From Isosphaeraceae bacterium (GTDB lineage Bacteria; Planctomycetota; Planctomycetia; Isosphaerales; Isosphaeraceae), in assembly GCA_039936275.1 (NCBI GenBank), contig JBDTIR010000783.1, positions 1-28,325 of the forward strand: a DNA stretch of 28,325 nt, in the 5' to 3' direction. The notes beneath the pieces were generated by a model. That model was not told the DNA's origin, ran no database searches, and saw only the letters and a program-made list of their open reading frames with translations. The translations under genes were made by a program, and so were the position numbers. Below, piece by piece: positions 17,471-28,325 of the stretch. The stretch's first letter is position 1; each line of letters opens with the position of its first letter.

Positions 17471-18142
17471 TTGGACCTTCCCGCAGACGATTTCGAAATA
17501 AAAGCGAGGTTCCGGGTGCGGTCCGAATTCGTTCAACAAGGCAAGACGCGCTGGTTTCACCTCGCCGGGTTCGAACGTCGATTGGGCAAACGGCCAGCGC
17601 AGGCGTTCTTCGCCTTTGTCAACGGCCTGCTGTCGATCAGTCTGCTGGCCGCGCTCGCCATGTGGCGAGACCAGCCCTTGATCTTCCCATCGTTAGGGCC
17701 GACGGCGTTCTTGCTCTTCTATACCCCCTTGGCACCCGGGGCTTCGCCGCGTAACACCCTGTTTGGCCACCTGATCGCGGTCTTCTGCGGTTACGGCTCG
17801 CTGGTGCTCTTTGGTCTGACCGATGACGGCCCCGCCTTGATGACGGGCATCACCGAGGCGCGCGTGGGAGCGACCGCCCTCTCATTAGCGGCGACGGCGG
17901 GCTTGATGGTCTTGTTCTCGGTCGAGCACCCGCCAGCAGGGGCGACGACCTTGATCGTCTCGCTGGGCATCCTTCGCCACCCTCGCGAACTGGTCTCACT
18001 CATGGCGGCGGTCGTCTTGCTCTGCATCCAGGGGTGGGTCATTAACCGACTCGCCGGCATTCCGTACCCGCTCTGGCGCGCCAGGCCACCGAAGCAGGCC
18101 AATTCAGAGCCGGCTCAGCCGCCTGCCGGGTCCGTTCCTTGA
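17471..18142 (+). CDS. HPP-family membrane protein (putative nitrite transporter)
   Basis: IFPSLGPTAFLLF...ASPRNTLFGH and signature EHPPAGATTL; multiple TM helices; TTG start uncertain. Confidence 0.85.
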   Translation: MDLPADDFEIKARFRVRSEFVQQGKTRWFHLAGFERRLGKRPAQAFFAFVNGLLSISLLAALAMWRDQPLIFPSLGPTAFLLFYTPLAPGASPRNTLFGHLIAVFCGYGSLVLFGLTDDGPALMTGITEARVGATALSLAATAGLMVLFSVEHPPAGATTLIVSLGILRHPRELVSLMAAVVLLCIQGWVINRLAGIPYPLWRARPPKQANSEPAQPPAGSVP

Positions 18143-18403: not shown

Positions 18404-20071
18404 GTGAGCGACGGCCTGAAGCGCATTTTCGGGATCGACCTGGGGACGACCTATTCGGCGATCGCCTACGTCGATGAACACGGCAAGCCGGTCATCGTCC
18501 CCAACCAGGAAAGCGAGCGGATCACCCCCAGCGTGGTCCTTTTCGACGGCGACAACGTGATCGTCGGCAACACGGCCAAGGAGTCGGCGAAGGTCGAGCC
18601 CGACCGCGTCGTCGGCCGGGTCAAGCAACACATGGGCGACCCGCACTTTGTCTTCGAGCACGACGGCCAGGCGTACAGCCCGGAAGACGTCAGCTCATTC
18701 ATCCTCCGCAAGGTCGTCAGCGACGCCGAGGTCGCGCTCGGCGGCGACCCGATCACCGACGTCGTCATCACCTGCCCGGCTTACTTCGGCACCGACGAAC
18801 GCGAAGCCACCGCCAACGCCGGACGCCTGGCCGGCCTGAACGTGCGCGCCATCCTCAATGAGCCGACCGCCGCCGCGATCGCCTATGGCCTGGAACAGGC
18901 TGACGATCAGACCGTCCTGGTCTACGACCTGGGCGGCGGCACGTTTGACATTACGATGATCGAAATCAAAGACCGCTTGATTCGAGTCATTTGTACAGGC
19001 GGCGACCACCGACTCGGCGGCGCGCTCTGGGACGAGGCGATCGTCATGTACCTCGCCGACCAGTTCCGCCAGCAAACCGGCGTCGAAGCCGACCCGATGG
19101 ACGACCCCGAAGTCCTCAACGACCTGTTCCTCCAGGCCGAACGCGGCAAGAAAACCCTCACCCAGCGCGACAAGGCCCCCTTCCGCGTCACCCACGCCGG
19201 ACAGCAAGCCAGGGTCGAGCTCGACCGGATCAAGTTCGAGGAAATTACTCGACACCTGCTCGACCGCACCATTGAACTGACCCGCGACATGCTCAACGAC
19301 GCCAAGGCGAAAGGGGCCGAACGGTTCGACAAGATCATCCTCGTCGGCGGTGCGACCCGCATGCCCCAGGTCCGCGATCGGCTCGTTAATGACTTCCGTA
19401 TTGAGCCCGAAGTCTACGACCCCGATGAAGCGGTGGCCAAAGGGGCCGCGCTCTTCGGCCTCAAGGAAGCGCTTCAGGATCAGGTCCGAGAGATCATCGC
19501 GCCCAACCATCCTGAGGGCGACGCCGACCACGACGAGATTGACCTGGCGGCCATCAGTGAGGCCGAAATCAGCGAAGCGCTCGACCGGATCGAGCAGACG
19601 ACCGGGTTCACCCTCACCGGTCCTGTGCGCGAGCTGGTCAGTACCCAGATCGTCAACGTGCTCTCAAAAAGCCTCGGCGTCGTGGCGAGGAACGAAGAGG
19701 GCAAGGACGTCGTCGTTTACCTCTTGCCCCGCAACAGCGAGGTGCCGATGGAGCAAACGGCCGACTTCGGCACCGACCAACCCAACCAGGAAGGGGTCGA
19801 GATCCAGGTCATGGCCGGTGAGCGCGACAGCCCAGACCCACTCGACTGCAAGGACGTCGGCACCGCGACGCTCAACCTGCCCCCGGCCTTGCCCGCGCGA
19901 AGCCCGGTGCGCGTGACCTTCGCCATCAGTCGCGACGGCCGCCTCGACGTCTCGGCCGTGGACCTGACCGGCGGCGGCTCGATCCACGTCGAGTTCGAGA
20001 CCGAGGCCGTGATGCGCGCCGACGAGGTCGCCGAACGCTCGACGGCCCTGCGCCTCTTGAACGTGTCTTGA
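18404..20071 (+). CDS. Atypical Hsp70-family protein (555 aa, no helical lid, long linker insertion)
   Basis: [40 protein letters not shown]; SBD-beta-like C-terminus ends shortly after the last strand. Confidence 0.93.
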   Translation: MSDGLKRIFGIDLGTTYSAIAYVDEHGKPVIVPNQESERITPSVVLFDGDNVIVGNTAKESAKVEPDRVVGRVKQHMGDPHFVFEHDGQAYSPEDVSSFILRKVVSDAEVALGGDPITDVVITCPAYFGTDEREATANAGRLAGLNVRAILNEPTAAAIAYGLEQADDQTVLVYDLGGGTFDITMIEIKDRLIRVICTGGDHRLGGALWDEAIVMYLADQFRQQTGVEADPMDDPEVLNDLFLQAERGKKTLTQRDKAPFRVTHAGQQARVELDRIKFEEITRHLLDRTIELTRDMLNDAKAKGAERFDKIILVGGATRMPQVRDRLVNDFRIEPEVYDPDEAVAKGAALFGLKEALQDQVREIIAPNHPEGDADHDEIDLAAISEAEISEALDRIEQTTGFTLTGPVRELVSTQIVNVLSKSLGVVARNEEGKDVVVYLLPRNSEVPMEQTADFGTDQPNQEGVEIQVMAGERDSPDPLDCKDVGTATLNLPPALPARSPVRVTFAISRDGRLDVSAVDLTGGGSIHVEFETEAVMRADEVAERSTALRLLNVS

Positions 20072-20081
20072 GGAATCATTC

Positions 20082-20753
20082 ATGAGCACTGCAATCGGAT
20101 TCCCGGTCAAGCCGGCCGAAGGCGAGCGCCGGTTCGTGCTTCAAGGCGTCGGCTGGGACGGCTACCAGGCGCTCCTGGCCCTCGTCGCGGACCAAGGGGT
20201 CCGTCTGACCTACGACCGGGGGAAGATCGAACTCATGTCGCCACTTTGGATTCACGAGCGATACAAGAAACTTTTCGCGTATATCATTGAGGCAATCACC
20301 GATGAACTTGATCTACCCAGGGTTGCCGCCGGCGCGTCAACGTTTAACAGCCAGGCGCTAGACCGTGGACTGGAGCCCGACGAATGTTATTACCTCGCGA
20401 GCGCCGCGATGCTCCGGCAGACCGATCGGATCGATTTGGCAATCGATCCACCGCCGGACCTGGCCATTGAAATCGAAATCACTCGAAGCGCCCTTGATCG
20501 CCCGGGCATCGATGCGGCCCTGGAGGTCCCCGAAGTCTGGAGATATAACGGTGAGTCGATTCGCGTTCTGCTCCTCGGACCGGATCGAACCTACGCCCTC
20601 TCTGAGACCAGCCGGGCGTTTCCATTCTTGCCGATGGCGGAGATCGAGCGGTTCTTGCATGACCACGACCCGAACAATGATACCCGCTGGGGCCGGGCCT
20701 TCCGCGCCTGGCTCCGCAGGGAGATCGTGCCAAGAGTGAGGGGCGAACGTTGA
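20082..20753 (+). CDS. Uma2-family (DUF820) PD-(D/E)xK endonuclease-like protein, possibly degenerate
   Basis: RLTYDRGKIELMSP...LEPDECYY...PPDLAIEIE...VPEVWRY. Confidence 0.9.
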   Translation: MSTAIGFPVKPAEGERRFVLQGVGWDGYQALLALVADQGVRLTYDRGKIELMSPLWIHERYKKLFAYIIEAITDELDLPRVAAGASTFNSQALDRGLEPDECYYLASAAMLRQTDRIDLAIDPPPDLAIEIEITRSALDRPGIDAALEVPEVWRYNGESIRVLLLGPDRTYALSETSRAFPFLPMAEIERFLHDHDPNNDTRWGRAFRAWLRREIVPRVRGER

Positions 20754-20820
20754 ACCAAGGCAATCTGATTGACCTTGAGCCAGCCTCCAGAACGGGGCGA
20801 CGGCCTGAGAGGACCTGCCG

Positions 20821-23149
20821 ATGAGAATTCGCAAAGGCGTGACGCTCGCTCTCTGGCTCACGTTGGCGCTCGTGGTTGGTGGAACCCTCTTCATTCGATT
20901 AAGAGGGCGGTTACAGCTAGAAACCACCAAGAGCCGATGGTCGAGCGGCCTGGCGAACCTGCACACTCCGAACAAGAACGCTCGGCTAGCCGCGGCGCGG
21001 CAGTTGAACGCCCTGGTCCGGAAGCAGCGAAACGCCATACCCGGGTGGACCTCCTTCGATCCGACGACCCGGGCCGATTTCCAGTACATGGTCGGACTCG
21101 TCGCTGATCCCCTGGTCGACCCGACGACCCGGGAAATCCTGGCCGAGGTTGCCGCGAACCAAGAGTTCAGAGAACTGCCCGAAGAGGTGATGTTCCCCTT
21201 AACATCGGTCCTCATTGATGAGTCGGAGCCAACCCGCTTACGTTGCGCCATCGCTCGCCACGCCGTGCCCGCCGCCCAGAGAGAACCGTTTCGAGATGCG
21301 GTCCTCGCCACCTTGTCAAGCAAGGATGACGCGGTGCGCCATCTGGCGTATCTGACGCTTGCATCACTGCCAATCGATGCGGAAACCCTCGCGCCGCTCC
21401 TGAACCATGGTCTGAGCGACCCCGTTCCCTCAATCCGATTCCAGGCCGCCCAACAGGCTCAAAGTCTGGCGAACCGGGGAGACCGAACCGCCGTTGGGCT
21501 CCTGCTGCGCGCCGCGAAGGACCAGGACGAGAGCGTGCAAAAAATCGCAAGGAGCGCGATCGAACACCTCGGCCCCGTGCCGGCCGAGACCGCCCCCGAC
21601 CTGATCGCGGCCCTCGACGACGCCGGCCCCAGGCTGCGGATCGCCCTGGCGTCCGGACTACTCCAAACGACTGGGCAGGTCGATCTCTATGCTCCGATCT
21701 TGATTGACGGCCTGCGATCAAACGACCTGGAGACCTGGCAGACCGCGTCCATGACGCTCTGGAGAATCGGTCGCCACCCTGAAATGCAGTCGCGAATCCT
21801 TCAAGACTTGACCATCCATGCTGGGCAAGTCCGACGACCAGTTCCGCGACCGGGCCGGACTGACCTTGGCGATGGCGGCCGGAGACTCCGACGCTTACAA
21901 GCCCTACATCGCCAACGGGCTTCGCTCGAACGACCAGGACTTGAGGTCCTGGGCCTTGATGGCGGCGTCCATGACCCAGATGCGAACGCAGTCGGGCCCA
22001 CAAACAGGCCCGACACGTCTGATCGTGCAACGCGGCCTGGTCCTCATCGCCGTGATCTCTGCGCTCGCCATGATCGGTCTCTTCATCCAACTCGCACTCT
22101 CGGCCACGAGGACAAAGACTCGACCGTCCGCCCCCGACCCTGCTCCTGCCCCCACCCCCAAGCGGATCTTTGTCTTGAACTATCCCCGACGCATCCAGCT
22201 CCGGCCGATCGCCGAGCCGACCTGGACCGACCCGACGGCGATCGCCGAGCAGGTCGAAGCGCTCCAGGGGCTCAACTTCTCCGACGTCGGCCCGTTCGAA
22301 ATCGCCGATTTACCGGGGGTCCGACTTTGGGGACTGGTCAACCCGACCAGGGCGATCACCGCGGCCGTTCAAGATCACCCTGAATGGGGAATCTTCCTTG
22401 TCTTGAAGACCGTCTATCAGGACGGAACAACGTATCGCCAGACCAGCACTCACCGCCTCGACCGCCCCGACCAGCGACCGGGGCACGAGTTCGTTTATGT
22501 CGAAGCGACCGACATTCCTGCACGTCTTGCCCGGTTCCTCGCCGAGCGGCCCGATCGGCCGATGCGGCCGGTCGCTTTGAATGAGTTCGCAGCGGACTTC
22601 GAGCGCGACCACGCCGACACCGTTGATTGGCGGTTCGCCCGGGGGACCATGACCGATCGGGAAATCCGCGATCTGAATCAGGTGAAAGGAAACGAAGTCA
22701 CCAATGCGCAGGTCGCCGAACTTCGCCACAAACTTATCCAGAAAGGGAACAGCGAACTCGATAAGAGCCTCCGCGAACGGTTCCTTGACAGTCGCCGATT
22801 AACCGGCGAGGAGCGAGCGAAACTCGGCCCGTCCCTGGTCATCGTCCACGACGCCTTACCGGTTGTTTGGGTCTGGGAATGGTTCCCAACGCTGATCGAT
22901 GACGAATTCCACGCCGAGAACCGGGTCAAGGAGTCGGCCCTTTATGACGAATCGCTCGATGGCGAATCCGCGCCCGACCAAGCTCCATCGTGGCAAACCT
23001 TGCCGCCTCGTCTGTCCTTCGTCGCGCTCAATGAACGGTTAGGCCCGGAAGCCCGCTTCGAGAAACTCGGCGCGCTGGACTGGCCGATCGAGGCCGACGT
23101 CTACATGCCACAGGCGGAATTGGCATCGGTTGAGCACGACGTGACATGA
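20821..23149 (+). pseudogene. Membrane-anchored HEAT-repeat protein with an unknown C-terminal domain, split by a 4-bp CCAT duplication at 21812-21819
   Basis: ORF 20821- carries a TM and HEAT repeats (GLSDPVPSIRFQAA, AAKDQDESVQKIA, GLRSNDLETW). ORF 21818- continues the same repeat type (LGKSDDQFRDRA, GLRSNDQDLR), then a second TM. Removing one CCAT restores ...LTMLGKSDD. Confidence 0.7.
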
Positions 23150-23162
23150 TGGCGCGAACGAC

Positions 23163-23177
23163 GTCCGGGGGTCGGAC
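23163..23177. promoter_or_regulatory. Palindrome GTCCG-N5-CGGAC, copy 2
   Basis: GTCCG GGGGT CGGAC, 29 nt before antitoxin 1. Confidence 0.35.
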
Positions 23178-23206
23178 CGCTTCAAATTCAGGATCGGTGC
23201 GGAACA

Positions 23207-23485
23207 ATGGATACGATGAAGAACGAGGAGGCCACGGCGACGGTTCGGTTCGATGGCGAGACGCTTCATCCATTGACACCGCTCGATCTGGTCCCCGATG
23301 CAATTTACGAAATCACGATCAAGGCGCGACACAAACCGGAATCGGAAGGCACTCTCTGGGAATTGCTCGAGGAATTGGCGGGCACGGTGGACGGACCAAG
23401 CGATTGGACCACGGAGCATGACCACGACTTCCACGGCACTCCCAAACGAGAACAAGGCCCCGACGCAATCATCAAAAGGGGGTAA
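23207..23485 (+). CDS. Antitoxin-like protein 1 (AF2212/DUF104-like)
   Basis: VRFDGETLHPLTPLDL N-terminus and GPSDWTTEHDHDFHGTPK C-terminus; colinear with antitoxin 2. Confidence 0.75.
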   Translation: MDTMKNEEATATVRFDGETLHPLTPLDLVPDAIYEITIKARHKPESEGTLWELLEELAGTVDGPSDWTTEHDHDFHGTPKREQGPDAIIKRG

Positions 23486-23490
23486 TCATC

Positions 23491-23736
23491 ATGAATAAAA
23501 CGTTAACAGTCATCTTCGATGGTGAGGTCTTCCGGCCCCGGGAACCTGTGAATTTGACGCCCAACTCGCAGTGTGTCATCGTAATCCAATCCGTGGCCGC
23601 TCCGACCAAGTCGGCGAACGCCTGGGACGTCCTGGACAAGTATACCGGGTCGATTGAGGGGCCGGGCGATTGGTCCGCCGAACACGACCATTATCTGTAT
23701 GGGACCCCGAAACGGTCCTCGGAGGGGCCGGTGTGA
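23491..23736 (+). CDS. Antitoxin-like protein 2 (AF2212/DUF104-like), cognate of VapC
   Basis: VIFDGEVFRPREPVNL and GPGDWSAEHDHYLYGTPK; GTGA overlap with the toxin start. Confidence 0.82.
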   Translation: MNKTLTVIFDGEVFRPREPVNLTPNSQCVIVIQSVAAPTKSANAWDVLDKYTGSIEGPGDWSAEHDHYLYGTPKRSSEGPV

Positions 23737-24149
23737 GCGGGGGACGCTTGTTCTTGGACACCGCGTTTGTGCAAGCCTTGCTCGATCGCCGCGACCAGTA
23801 TCATGCCAGGGCGCAAGCCATACGGCCACGTCTGGATTCGGCGATCGAAATTTGGATCACGGAGGCGTTGCTGATCGAGATTGGCAACGCTCTGAGCGTC
23901 TTGAACCGCTCGGCCGCCTCGGAATTTATCGAAATGTGTTATGAAACAACGAATATATCCGTCGTCCAGGTCGATACGGCCCTGCTCATACGATCGCTTC
24001 AACTCTATCAATCACGTCTCGACAAGACCTGGGGCCTGACCGATTGTATTTCGTTCGTGATGATGCGCGAGCACGGCCTGACCGAGGCCCTGACTTCCGA
24101 TTCGCATTTTGTTCAGGCGGGATTCCGGGCCTTGATGCTGGAGGAATAG
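23733..24149 (+). CDS. vapC: VapC-type PIN-domain ribonuclease toxin
   Basis: [37 protein letters not shown] carry the acidic PIN catalytic residues; GTG start overlaps the antitoxin stop. Confidence 0.92.
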
Positions 24150-24153
24150 AGGT

Positions 24154-26214
24154 ATGTCCAGGTTCGTCGGGATTGATCTGGGAACGACCAACTCGGTCGT
24201 GGCGTCGCGCAACGCCTACGGTCGGCCCGAGGTCATCCCGAACCGGGACGGGCAGAACGTCACGCCTTCGGTCATTTATTTCGGCACCGAACCCCCCGCG
24301 ATCGGCCAGGAGGCGAAGGAATGGGCGCGGTTGGGCAACGAGGAGGTCGCCAGTTTTTTCAAGCCGCACATGGGCAGTCCGCTTTACCGGCTTCAATTCC
24401 ACGGCCGCGATTATGACGCCACCGGCCTTTCCGCGATGATCCTCGCCAGGCTCAAGGAGGACGCCGAAACCAAGCTGGGCGGGCCAGTCACACAAGCCGT
24501 CATCACTGTGCCGGCCTATTTCGCCGACGCTCAGCGCAAGGCCACCATCGACGCCGGCCGTCTGGCAGGTCTCGACGTCTTGAGGATCATCAATGAGCCG
24601 ACCGCAGCCGCGTTGGCCTACGGACTCCAGCAATCCGGCGTGACCGAGACCGTCTTGATCTACGACCTCGGCGGCGGCACGTTTGACGTCACCGTCGCCA
24701 GGATCAATCCCGACGAGGTCGCCGTGCTCGCCACGGCAGGCGATCACGACCTGGGCGGCAAGAACTGGGACGACCGGATCGCCACCTTCCTCGCCGAGAA
24801 GTTCGCCGCCGAGACCGGCATTGATCCACTTGACGACCCGATCGCGCTTCACGAGGTCCTCGTCCGAAGCGAGCAGGCGAAATGGACCCTCTCGGAACGG
24901 AGTTCAGCCCGCGTCACCTTGCAGCTTGGCACCGAGCGTCGAGGATATGAGTTGACCCGCAACGAGTTTGAAGGGATGACCTTCCCTTTGATGGACCGCA
25001 CCCGCAGACTCACCGAGGAGGCCCTTGAGGAAGCGTCCCTGTCCTGGAAGGACCTTGCCGGCGTCTTGCTGGTGGGCGGATCGACACGGATGCCGATGGT
25101 CCGTCAGTACGTCACCCAGATGGCTGGCCAACCCCCAAGGGCCGGCGTGAACGTGGATGAAGTGGTCGCCCTGGGCGCGGCGATTCAGGCGGCGATGGTG
25201 ACTGGGGAGGTGTTGGGAGACGCCCGCCCCGCGTTCACGCTCGTCGGCGCTCGGCGGATCAAGGACGTGATGTCGCACAGCCTGGGCGCCGTCGCCGTCA
25301 GCCCTGACGGCACGCGCTATGTCAATGACATCGTGATCCGACGCAACCAGGCGATCCCGGCCGAGAACACGACCACATACCTGCACGCCACCCACGGCGG
25401 GGCCAACGACCGGCTCGAAGTTTACTTGACCCAGGGGGAAAGCCCCCAGCCGCTCGATTGCTCAATCTTGGGAAAATACGTCTTCAACGGCATTCAAGCC
25501 ACTGATGCCGACGTGATGATCGACTTGTCGATGTCCTACGACGTCAACGGCGTCGTCCAGGTCCAGGCCGTTCAGCGCGACACGCTCAAGACCTTGCCGA
25601 TGACCGTCGAACCAGTGCCCGACGATCTGTCATGGCTCGGCCTGCCACCGCAATCCTCAACGACCGAAGGCCCGCGCGAGCCGATCCGGGTTTACCTCTT
25701 GATCGACGGCTCATCGAGCATGGCCGGCCCTCCGCTCGACGAGGCGCAAGCCGCCGCTCGCGCTTTTCTGGAAACCTGCGACTTCACCTCGACCGAGGTC
25801 GGCCTGATTTCCTTTTCCGACGAGGTCACGCTTCAGGCCGAGGCGACCGACAACGCCCGCCGAGTGCTGGCCGCCATCGTCAGGCTCACCGCCGACGGCA
25901 CGACCAACCTGGCCGACGCCCTCATCTTGGCCAGGGAAAAGCTGGCCGAGGCCGATCGCGCCCGTTACATTGTCTTGTTGACCGACGGCTACCCGGACGC
26001 CACCGAGGCCGCCGTCTGGGAAGCGGCGCTCTGCCGAGAGAACGGCATCCAGATCGTCGCCATCGGCATCGGCGACGCCGACCGAGACTACCTCAGACGC
26101 CTGGCAAGCACCGAAGCCGGGTCGATCTTTACCAGACAAGGCGAACTGGTCCAGACCTTCGGCCACATCGCCCGCGTCATCGCGCAAGGCGGTAAGGCGT
26201 TACGGATTCAATAA
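24154..26214 (+). CDS. Hsp70 (NBD + SBD-beta) fused to a C-terminal VWA domain
   Basis: [40 protein letters not shown], then VWA with MIDAS DGSSS, GTTN and LLTDG, and VAIGIG. Confidence 0.93.
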
Positions 26215-27120
26215 ATGAACCGTCCAGAGCGCGGAGAGGACGCTAAATTGAAACAGAAACCGATCTCAATTCGTTATCAGAACCTGAGACATGCCTATGG
26301 AATGGCGCTGTCGAGTGCGTTCGGGGCGGTCTGCGGCCTCTATTTGTATGTCGAGCTGGTGAAGGTCAATAATCTCTGGGTCAGGGACGCGGCGGCGGGG
26401 GCCTTGATCGGCGGCTCGATCGGCTTCGTGGTCAATGCGGCTGGCCCGTTTCGCGACGGCGCCTGGCTGAAGCTGGCGAGGGCCGCCACCTGGGGGACCT
26501 TGGCCGGCTCGGCTGGCGGGGCGATCGGGCTCCTGATCGGTGAAGGCGTGCTGGGCGGTTTGAAAGGGGGGACGCTCGGGCGGGCCGTCTCGTGGGCGAT
26601 CCTCGGCCTTGGGATCGGTGCCAGCCAGGGAATTGCCGACCGTTCGATGCAGCGGCTCACGTTCGGCCTGATCGGCGGAGGGCTCGGCGGGTTCCTCGGC
26701 GGGTTCCTGTTCGAGCAGTTGCGCGACCGCCTGGGGAACCGCTATGACGTCAGCCAAGGGGTCGGCATGGTGGTTCTGGGCCTGGGGCTTGGGCTCTGTC
26801 TCGCGTTGGTGGAACAGGCCTTGCGCCGGGCCTGGGTCGTCGTGCTCCAAGGGCGTCAGGAAGGCCGCGCCTACTTGCTGGCCAGGAGGGTCTCCGCCTT
26901 GGGGCTCGATGAGCGCGCCGAGGTCGGACTCTTTGGCGACCCGACCATCGCTCGACGCCACGCCGAGATTGAACAAGCAGGCCCTGGCTACGTTCTGCAC
27001 AATCACGACGCCCAAGGGCGGACTCGCGTCAACGGCGAACTCTTGACCGGCCCGCAACCCTTGCGCGACGGCGACAGGATCGAGCTCGGACAGACCTTGC
27101 TGGTCTTCCGACAGCGCTAG
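26215..27120 (+). CDS. Gly-rich multi-TM membrane protein with a C-terminal degenerate FHA domain
   Basis: About six GxxxG-rich helices, then ARRHAEI...TRVNG...LRDGDRIELG (FHA fold). TAAATG junction with the Hsp70-VWA gene. Confidence 0.85.
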   Translation: MNRPERGEDAKLKQKPISIRYQNLRHAYGMALSSAFGAVCGLYLYVELVKVNNLWVRDAAAGALIGGSIGFVVNAAGPFRDGAWLKLARAATWGTLAGSAGGAIGLLIGEGVLGGLKGGTLGRAVSWAILGLGIGASQGIADRSMQRLTFGLIGGGLGGFLGGFLFEQLRDRLGNRYDVSQGVGMVVLGLGLGLCLALVEQALRRAWVVVLQGRQEGRAYLLARRVSALGLDERAEVGLFGDPTIARRHAEIEQAGPGYVLHNHDAQGRTRVNGELLTGPQPLRDGDRIELGQTLLVFRQR

Positions 27121-27147: not shown

Positions 27148-28325
27148 ATGACGGCAGCGAGGGTGGACGGCTGGTCCCTGGAAGTCGTGCGAGGCAAAGA
27201 CCTCGGGCGCGTCTATGCCTTGAACGGCGAGGCGGTCGTGCTCGGCAACGATCCAGGGCCAGGGCCCGGCATCAACCTGGCCGACCAAGAAGGGAATTCT
27301 CCCAGGCGGATGGCGGCGAACCAGGCCAGGCTCGACTGCCTCGACGGTGCCTTGGTCGTTCGCGACCTCGACAGCCCTGGCGGCACGTTTATCAACCGTC
27401 AACGCTTGCTCCCGGACCAAGCTCGCCCTTTGAGCGCCGGGGACGTCATCCAGCTTGGCGGCGTGCAACTGCGGCTCGTCGCCGCTTCGAAATCGCCCCC
27501 TATGTCCGCGCCGCCTTTGCGCCCGCCAACCGTGTCCGCATCGGGTCCGATCAACCTTCGCTTACCTTCGGGCACAACCTGCCGATCCTGGGACGACGTC
27601 CTCGCCATCTCGGCGCAGCGCTGGAATGAGCTGCGCGACGACTTGACCACGGGCCGCCTGGCGGCGTCCTTGATCGCGATCGGCCAAGGGGCCTTGGCCC
27701 CGTCTCCAGAGACGCCGGGCTCACCCGACGAACGGCTCGACGCCTGGATCGCCTCCTTACCGACGACCAGGGCGAGCACGCCTGATCTGGACCTGCACCC
27801 GGCAACCCTGACCGTCAGAGCCACGCCAGGCGGAGCAACGACCAGGCGCAAGGTCCGCGTCGCCAACGTCGGCTATCGCCTGCTCCGAGCCACCGCTCGG
27901 ATTGAGCCGGACGGAACCCCCTGGCTCACCATCGCGCCTGGATTCGCCGGCAAACCGTTCGTGACGGCCGAAGGAATCGACCTGCCGATCGACGTCACCA
28001 GCCCAGAATCCTTCACGGGACCACTCTCGGCCGCCCTGGTCGTCGAAAGCAACGGCGGCACGCGCCGGGTCAAGGTCGTGCTGGAACCCCCTGCCCCGAC
28101 CGGAGAGCCGTTCGAGACCGAGCCGCCAACGAGTCGAGAATCGGACCTCAACGCCCGCTTGGCCCGTCTCTCGGTTCCGACCCGCTTGATCACCGCGAGC
28201 CTGATCGCGGCGGGGCTCCGCCTGGTGATCGCCCTTGTCGCTGGATCGTCGGCCTTGAGCCTTACCCCGATCAGTGTGGTGCTTGCCCTGGTCGGCCTGT
28301 TGGCAGGCGCTCTCGTGGCCTGGCG
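27148..28325 (+). CDS. 3'-truncated protein: degenerate FHA, helical domain, BACON/Ig-like domain, TM helices
   Basis: Open from ATG 27148 (SD AAGAGGAG) to the window end with no stop; hand-translated, absent from the ORF track. FHA: VRDLDSPGGTFIN...LSAGDVIQLG. Ig-like: VRVANVG...PWL...VESNGGTRRV. Hydrophobic helices begin at ~28190. Confidence 0.82.
   Translation, partial: MTAARVDGWSLEVVRGKDLGRVYALNGEAVVLGNDPGPGPGINLADQEGNSPRRMAANQARLDCLDGALVVRDLDSPGGTFINRQRLLPDQARPLSAGDVIQLGGVQLRLVAASKSPPMSAPPLRPPTVSASGPINLRLPSGTTCRSWDDVLAISAQRWNELRDDLTTGRLAASLIAIGQGALAPSPETPGSPDERLDAWIASLPTTRASTPDLDLHPATLTVRATPGGATTRRKVRVANVGYRLLRATARIEPDGTPWLTIAPGFAGKPFVTAEGIDLPIDVTSPESFTGPLSAALVVESNGGTRRVKVVLEPPAPTGEPFETEPPTSRESDLNARLARLSVPTRLITASLIAAGLRLVIALVAGSSALSLTPISVVLALVGLLAGALVAW

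Follow-up and report, generated by a model that had tools for sequence, protein, structure and literature searches.

A lidless Hsp70 fused to a vWA domain in Isosphaeraceae is predicted to belong to a conserved two-Hsp70 module of DO-GTPase/GAP1-N2 operons

INTRODUCTION

Hsp70 proteins are usually seen as lid-closing chaperones driven by J-proteins, while MoxR-vWA pairs couple an NTPase motor to a vWA protein with a MIDAS (metal ion-dependent adhesion site) that is thought to bind the target. A further use of Hsp70s was proposed by Kaur, Burroughs, Iyer and Aravind (eLife 2020; PMC7159879), who computationally predicted GAP1-N2-type DO-GTPase conflict systems; the HSP70 theme of these 'GTPase-centric' systems consists of HSP70 genes and a protein in which FNIII repeats are joined to DnaJ or TPR. 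The same comparative-genomics framework reads the vWA domains of conflict systems as ATPase adaptors (PMC7159879), and in Sulfolobus a ZnF-FHA protein, ArnA, and a vWA protein, ArnB, form a regulated complex (PMC6509490, PMC12852372). Here we describe a gene for an Hsp70 fused to a vWA domain (Hsp70-vWA) in a 28,325-nt contig of an Isosphaeraceae bacterium (Planctomycetota; JBDTIR010000783.1, assembly GCA_039936275.1), and compare its locus with these systems. The window analyzed is this whole contig, which comes from a 78%-complete assembly.

The text of PMC7159879 names HSP70, GrpE and SBD-less HSP70 and leaves the Hsp70-vWA fusion unmentioned, and the string 'HSP70' is absent from the supplement text searched. 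Literature searches found no dedicated description or experimental study of the fusion. What is new here is the Isosphaeraceae variant of the cassette, the wider family having already been catalogued computationally.

RESULTS

A lidless Hsp70 that continues into a MIDAS-complete vWA domain

The Hsp70-vWA gene is an uninterrupted open reading frame (ORF; 24154-26214, + strand) for a protein of 686 amino acids, with GGAGGAA 8 nt upstream of its ATG and a TAA codon that abuts the ATG of the next gene, an FHA gene (26215), without any spacer. Pfam analysis returned an HSP70 match at residues 5-486 (E 4.8e-122) and a VWA match at residues 513-660 (E 3.2e-21), accompanied by VWA_2 and VWA_3 matches (512-660 overall). 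The HSP70 profile was covered from position 2 to 497 of 599, leaving the lid part unmatched, and in the closest solved structure, Geobacillus DnaK (2v7y), the alignment was confined to residues 1-471, which comprise the nucleotide-binding domain (NBD) and the beta-sandwich of the substrate-binding domain (SBD-beta). The protein scores well under the NCBIfam cut-offs for DnaK and HscA (405 versus 648 bits). Both hallmarks of the Hsp70 superfamily (PF00012), an actin-fold NBD and an SBD-beta sandwich, are present, and no helical lid (SBD-alpha) was found either by Pfam profile coverage or in an AlphaFold2 model generated from an alignment of 77 fusions.

The NBD spans residues 1-354 (24154-25215), as placed by Pfam, the 2v7y alignment, the columns of the 77 fusions and the model. 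Its residues D8, K70, E148, D171, T176 and D178, which were checked against the DnaK catalytic set D8, K70, E171, D194, T199 and D201, are invariant or at least 90% kept across the alignment. A remodelled interdomain linker follows at residues 355-367 (25216-25254), delimited by column counts and low model confidence, and runs on into R368-I369-K370-D371-V372. According to the column counts, the hydrophobic VLLL linker of canonical DnaK and HscA is absent from the family; instead of VLLLDV, the fusions share a pattern F-T-L..G.(R/K)(R/K)(I/V)xDV in which position 369 is the only conserved hydrophobic one. The linker is thus remodelled, though kept within the family. The SBD-beta sandwich occupies residues 368-486 (25255-25611), where the Pfam and PDB alignments end and the modelled strands lie. 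At the lid position, residues 487-510 (25612-25683) form a conserved hinge, EPxPxD(L/M)SW..PP (D491 in 74/77, W494 in 59/77 and P499 in 74/77 fusions), and then a short variable linker, as seen in the sequence, the alignment and the model. The vWA domain takes up residues 511-686 (25684-26214, including the stop codon), based on the three Pfam vWA families and on fold matches.

The MIDAS reads D518-G-S520-S-S522 (25705-25719), T583/T584 in ADGTTN (25900-25905) and D611 in LLTDG (25984-25986), where D518, S520, S522 and D611 are invariant among the 77 fusions. The DxSxS...T...D signature lies on a vWA fold and forms a predicted metal site. A second model, covering the SBD-beta-vWA part, matches MIDAS-type vWA and I domains (CMG2, TRAP, vWF A3 and integrin I) with TM-scores, normalised to the target, of up to 0.85. 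Among solved structures, the vWA domain nearest in sequence is that of ArnB in the ArnA-ArnB complex of Sulfolobus (8s05_A, E 3.4e-9), together with its paralog 5a8j.

The full-length model has a mean pLDDT of 90.2 and a pTM of 0.71. In this model the last SBD-beta strand (483-486) is followed by a 4-residue helix (493-496) and by the vWA fold from residue 511, with no lid helices in between. Confidence drops at 355-364, in the NBD-SBD linker, and at 502-507, in the SBD-vWA linker (pLDDT <50); because of this low linker confidence, the modelled vWA domain looks like a tethered adaptor, not a structural lid. The NBD/SBD-beta layout superposes on ATP-state docked DnaK (4b9q) at 3.1 Å over 530 columns, whereas undocked ADP-state DnaK fits badly (rmsd >20 Å). 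Judged from sequence and model, Hsp70-vWA is thus a genuine Hsp70 (NBD plus SBD-beta) that looks ATPase-competent, with a conserved hinge and a MIDAS-complete vWA domain standing in place of the helical lid. A first-pass annotation of the contig had described such a replacement, with a complete MIDAS (DGSSS, T, TDG) and a Pro/Ser linker. Pfam, the 2v7y alignment and the model agree with the replacement, the MIDAS residues are all in place, and the linker it quoted lies at residues 489-510.

The fusion recurs throughout Isosphaeraceae and in many phyla

More than 300 full-length proteins with both Pfam domains, 65-84% identical to Hsp70-vWA, were found in Isosphaeraceae metagenome-assembled genomes (MAGs) and in Tundrisphaera, Singulisphaera and Tautonia. 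An ortholog is encoded in 46 of the 60 Isosphaeraceae genomes sampled, and is fragmented in 4 of the 46. The same architecture of 685-705 amino acids is repeated in hundreds of independent assemblies, complete genomes included.

When the SBD-beta-plus-vWA part was used as a query against 1.84 billion cluster representatives, 144 clusters matched at E<=1e-30; among the best 150 clusters (50% identity), at least 69 are proteins of 675-780 amino acids with an N-terminal DLGTT and a DxSxS near 510-540. Uniqueness of the fusion to one assembly, which the first-pass annotation took as a refutation of its proposal, is therefore ruled out. Hsp70+VWA clusters of the ESM Atlas belong to Planctomycetota, Bacillota, Actinomycetota and Myxococcota. 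A cross-phylum scan with one genome per species, in which a match to a six-sequence alignment had to span the domain junction, yielded 80 loci, which are spread over about 15 phyla of bacteria and include one archaeon. Represented are Acidobacteriota, Chloroflexota, Actinomycetota, Cyanobacteria, Bacteroidota, Bacillota, Myxococcota, Verrucomicrobiota and Planctomycetota (including Kuenenia), as well as large sulfur bacteria (Thiomargarita and Achromatium), Azospirillum, Longimicrobium and the archaeon Methanoregula. Their fusions are 40-47% identical to the Isosphaeraceae protein over the full length.

A second lidless Hsp70 accompanies the fusion

The window encodes another Hsp70 (Hsp70-1; 18404-20071, + strand; Pfam HSP70, E 1.9e-109), a lidless protein of 555 amino acids made up of an NBD, a conserved insertion of ~61 residues, an SBD-beta and a short C-terminal helix. 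Orthologs of Hsp70-1 (42-50% identical) are encoded directly upstream of the fusion, on the same strand, in 49 of the 66 loci with enough upstream sequence, and elsewhere in the locus in a further 14-15, which makes the linkage all but obligatory. A functional partnership of Hsp70-vWA and Hsp70-1 is strongly supported by this comparison, because their adjacency is conserved across phyla. Within Isosphaeraceae, the two genes are adjacent in three of the five loci compared (L019, L020 and L022), and a Uma2 gene alone lies between them in L017.

The insertion of Hsp70-1 sits between the NBD and SBD-beta and is conserved in length and pattern across orthologs. The first-pass annotation had suggested it as an acidic ligand for the MIDAS of the fusion, a suggestion that the orthologs do not bear out: no invariant acidic residue was found in the insertion, whose most acidic columns reach 67-71%, and its net charge has a median of -3 among 58 orthologs versus -11 in the window genome.

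The Hsp70 pair outside Isosphaeraceae lies in DO-GTPase/GAP1-N2 operons

The first-pass annotation missed the tie between this family and DO-GTPase/GAP1-N2 operons. A protein of ~1000 amino acids is encoded downstream of the Hsp70 pair in about 58 of the 80 cross-phylum loci, and some 35 loci continue, in a fixed order, with proteins of ~400, 870 and 470-700 amino acids. Pfam analysis identified these three as DO-GTPase2 (PF19993), GAP1-N2 (PF20013) plus GAP1-M, and a second DO-GTPase; DO-GTPase genes occur in most of the 80 loci. The ~1000-residue partner features a DZR double zinc ribbon (29/36), TPR and FN3 repeats, and its profile matches J domains at E ~1e-5. Because these operon partners match the description in section 29 of PMC7159879, the cross-phylum Hsp70 pair is assigned, on gene content, to the HSP70 theme of 'GTPase-centric' conflict systems of the GAP1-N2 type.

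The Isosphaeraceae genes are dedicated orthologs of this pair, with full-length identity of 40-47%, the same pairing and a nested position in the tree. In a FastTree phylogeny, the Isosphaeraceae fusions are monophyletic and their sister is a planctomycete clade, including Kuenenia, that retains GAP1-N2; both clades are nested in DO-GTPase-linked diversity. Given this placement, the simplest reading is that the GTPase core was secondarily replaced in Isosphaeraceae.

Two of these operons deserve mention. A Methanoregula sp. MAG (L098, 7193-17944) carries Hsp70-1, Hsp70-vWA, the ~1000-residue partner, DO-GTPase and GAP1-N2, a complete operon of the bacterial type that suggests transfer between domains. 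A Planctomycetota MAG (L087, 2707-8863) has three consecutive Hsp70 genes before its DO-GTPase genes, the first seemingly split by a frameshift.

Membrane FHA proteins follow the Hsp70 pair in Isosphaeraceae

In the window and in five further Isosphaeraceae loci (L017-L020 and L022), the Hsp70 pair is followed by three genes, which encode a glycine-zipper/FHA protein, a second FHA protein and an exported vWA protein. The first (26215-27120, + strand), a membrane protein, has an N-terminal region rich in glycine zippers (at least 4 hydrophobic segments by hydropathy, 22% Gly) and, at its C-terminus, a non-canonical FHA domain (Pfam FHA/Yop-YscD_cpl); in 39 of 46 Isosphaeraceae genomes its gene lies immediately 3' of the fusion. 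The second (27148-28323, + strand; Pfam FHA), whose 3' end is cut by the contig end, consists of an N-terminal non-canonical FHA domain, a conserved helical region (CRTWDDF...), a beta-rich domain and C-terminal transmembrane (TM) helices; full-length orthologs have 453-468 amino acids and 4 TM segments. The third protein contains a vWA domain, a signal peptide and a C-terminal membrane anchor. In some genera it bears extra N-terminal repeats resembling squalene-hopene cyclase, as in L020 (7424-9523; Pfam SQHop_cyclase_N, E 8e-7).

Both FHA domains feature substitutions at the phosphothreonine site that are conserved in six orthologs (GR to GL/GN, SxxH to ARRH/AAxQ, NG to G); in the first FHA protein these are GR to GL, SxxH to ARRH and NG to G/R, kept in 6 orthologs. 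Among the Pfam matches of the cassette genes in the window and L019, there is no GrpE, Ser/Thr kinase, PP2C phosphatase or MoxR-type AAA+ protein. A PF20013 match occurs nowhere in the window assembly or in G052, and the GAP1-N2 matches of three other genomes (G034, G051 and G040) are located elsewhere in the genome, away from the cassette. We also considered the second FHA protein as a reduced homolog of the J-like/FN3 partner, which was ruled out by an hhalign probability of 0.3.

No close ortholog of the FHA-TM protein was found in 250 other Planctomycetota, which yielded just paralogs of 28-37% identity, and no Hsp70 is encoded within 1.5 kb of the five such paralogs examined. One high-quality Isosphaeraceae genome (G018, contig C13, 37087-41533) carries an FHA-TM gene (63% identical) with a nearby vWA match, while an Hsp70-vWA ortholog was not found there with this query, so the membrane part may exist without the fusion. 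In several Isosphaeraceae assemblies that are very large and of low completeness (G007, G011, G024, G029, G047 and G054), the fusion and the FHA-TM gene are in pieces with in-frame TGA or TAG codons, which could reflect either decay of the cassette or poor assembly.

Neighbouring genes in the window

The two Hsp70 genes of the window are separated by a lineage-specific insert of 4 kb (20082-24149, + strand) that lies outside the conserved module. Pfam analysis of the insert, all on the + strand, shows a gene resembling Uma2 nucleases (20082-20753), ORFs that have HEAT repeats or are of unknown type (20821-23149), an AF2212-like antitoxin (23491-23736, E 2.2e-5) and a PIN toxin (23670-24149). 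The last two make up a VapBC-like toxin-antitoxin pair immediately upstream of Hsp70-vWA, in which the antitoxin gene overlaps the start of the PIN gene; a small ORF at 23207-23485 resembles the antitoxin ORF and has no Pfam match. A Uma2-family gene, 51% identical, is also found between the Hsp70 pair in a Tundrisphaera-like genome (G040; L017, 17661-18344) and is missing there in three other genera, and the site between the two Hsp70 genes seems to take up insertions. The HEAT-repeat ORF (20821-22383) and a 443-residue ORF (21818-23149) overlap by ~565 nt. These may be one frameshifted or mis-split gene, since L018 has a single ORF of 962 amino acids upstream of the fusion whose C-terminus resembles the 443-residue product. 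The gene upstream of Hsp70-1 (17471-18142) encodes an HPP-family membrane protein (Pfam TM_HPP, E 1.4e-26) and goes with the nitrate-reductase-like operon upstream, not with the Hsp70 cassette.

DISCUSSION

By orthology, Hsp70-vWA is identified as the Isosphaeraceae form of one subunit of a conserved two-Hsp70 module, whose other subunit is the lidless Hsp70-1. Taken as a whole, the best explanation, which we consider reasonably probable, joins this module to a proposed switch or motor that acts on membrane FHA proteins. Working together, the two Hsp70s would act as a switch or assembly motor powered by ATP. The vWA domain, by analogy with MoxR-vWA pairs, would be its metal-dependent adaptor and hold it to a fixed partner, and the lidless SBD-beta would bind and release a partner segment rapidly under nucleotide control. 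Lid-truncated DnaK has faster peptide kinetics. In Isosphaeraceae, the predicted targets are the FHA-fold domains that the two membrane proteins would expose to the cytoplasm. The output would then be a membrane-level change and may consist in control of the glycine-zipper protein. A fuller proposal, which we regard as unlikely, is that the Hsp70 pair became detached from the GTPase/GAP1 core and acts without a J-protein or exchange factor, and that its MIDAS docks onto pseudo-FHA domains and drives assembly or gating of the glycine-zipper protein. If true, this would be an Hsp70-powered membrane effector or stress switch of an undescribed kind.

Several observations weigh against the favoured explanation. 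The MIDAS threonine varies across the family, with position 584 being Gly in 40/77 and Thr in 26/77 fusions, so metal-dependent binding may not hold for every fusion. AlphaFold generally favours an ATP-like state for Hsp70s, so the docked layout of the model gives weak support. The DO-GTPase, GAP1 and FN3/J-like genes are absent from the Isosphaeraceae cassette (window and loci L017-L022). Furthermore, seven cassette proteins gave no match to PADLOC-DB 2.0 at E<=0.001 and no copies were present in the plasmid and phage collections searched; because no such links to defence databases, plasmids or phages were found, a conflict role for the Isosphaeraceae variant is not established. Its biological role may be directed against invaders or concern envelope stress. 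The high conservation in the family (65-84% identity) suits a housekeeping role as much as a conflict role.

The first-pass annotation had instead proposed that the vWA domain functionally replaces the lid, with a client in SBD-beta being clamped through an acidic residue bound at the MIDAS and the acidic insertion of Hsp70-1 serving as ligand. Such capture in place of lid closure is purely conjectural. The missing lid, the complete MIDAS after SBD-beta, the proximity of Hsp70-1 to the fusion across phyla and the conserved length and pattern of its insertion, strongly acidic in the window genome, all agree with it. Nevertheless, the insertion lacks an invariant acidic residue and its strong charge is particular to the window genome, the low-confidence linker speaks against rigid, lid-like closure, and the variable MIDAS threonine fits poorly with a universal clamp. 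Acidic residues that are conserved in Hsp70-1 occur at its C-terminus, and need no MIDAS explanation because, in our reading of the alignment, they correspond to the start of lid helix A of DnaK. We therefore view the clamp as doubtful. A signalling module of the ArnA-ArnB or TerY-P type has a comparably low probability in our estimate; in such a module, the downstream FHA proteins would have the vWA domain as their docking site or phospho-substrate, and Ser/Thr phosphorylation would control the Hsp70 as the output. ArnB is the nearest solved vWA domain, the Sulfolobus proteins do form a regulated complex (PMC6509490, PMC12852372), and an FHA gene directly follows the fusion in most Isosphaeraceae genomes with an ortholog (39/46), yet the canonical residues for phosphothreonine binding are missing from both FHA domains, and the substitutions are themselves conserved. 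In addition, the cassette includes no kinase or PP2C, the contacts between ArnA and ArnB are made by a zinc finger and by a helical domain that is phosphorylated, and not by the MIDAS, and outside Isosphaeraceae the fusion has no FHA partner.

It is less probable still that the two proteins are a specialised chaperone pair of the ordinary kind, which folds membrane proteins or controls their quality and has neither a conflict nor a signalling role. High conservation and broad presence in Isosphaeraceae, retention of catalytic and SBD residues, and the lack of PADLOC, plasmid or phage links would be expected of such a pair, but neither a J-domain protein nor GrpE is encoded in the cassette and both Hsp70s are lidless. 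The wider family is moreover found in DO-GTPase/GAP1-N2 operons with a patchy distribution across phyla and one archaeon, and an ortholog was not found with this query in 8 of 26 high-quality Isosphaeraceae genomes. An artefact, in which a missed stop or an assembly error joined two genes, can be dismissed almost entirely in view of the continuous frame and the recurrence of the 685-705 residue architecture in hundreds of assemblies, including complete genomes.

Hsp70-vWA is part of a large and conserved family of lidless Hsp70s that carry a predicted metal-dependent adaptor domain and occur in pairs, in predicted immune-type operons. The Isosphaeraceae form is a natural experiment in which the Hsp70 pair persists without GTPases, GAP1 or a J-like protein; this persistence argues for an autonomous module that has an activity of its own. 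With its five genes, the cassette is also a smaller system for studying what an Hsp70 gains from a MIDAS domain.

In comparison with known systems, the closest relationship is to the systems of GAP1-N2 type, with which the Hsp70 pair of the window shares orthology (40-50% identity), pairing and gene order, although FHA-fold membrane proteins and an exported vWA protein replace the GTPase, GAP1 and FN3/J-like genes in the window and the Isosphaeraceae cassette. The first-pass annotation had drawn an analogy to pairs of ATPases and vWA adaptors, which holds and accords with how vWA domains are read in PMC7159879. The MoxR/vWA pairs RavA-ViaA, CbbQ-CbbO and NorQ-NorD share the logic of a motor and a metal-dependent adaptor, but the motor of Hsp70-vWA is an actin-fold Hsp70 and not an AAA+ hexamer, motor and vWA domain form one polypeptide, and no MoxR gene is present in the cassette. 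As in ArnA-ArnB and TerY-P (vWA, PP2C and kinase), a vWA domain is encoded beside FHA proteins; in contrast to these, the cassette has no kinase or phosphatase and its FHA domains have lost the phosphothreonine-binding residues, and ArnB bears a beta-sandwich and a helical domain where the fusion bears an Hsp70. Finally, Hsp70-vWA resembles DnaK and lidless Hsp70s, whether natural or engineered, such as the Mycoplasma genitalium DnaK lacking SBD-alpha (PDB 5obu), in its NBD and SBD-beta folds, catalytic residues and predicted docked, ATP-like layout, whereas it departs from canonical DnaK in the missing lid, the remodelled interdomain linker, scores below the NCBIfam cut-offs and the vWA domain at its C-terminus.

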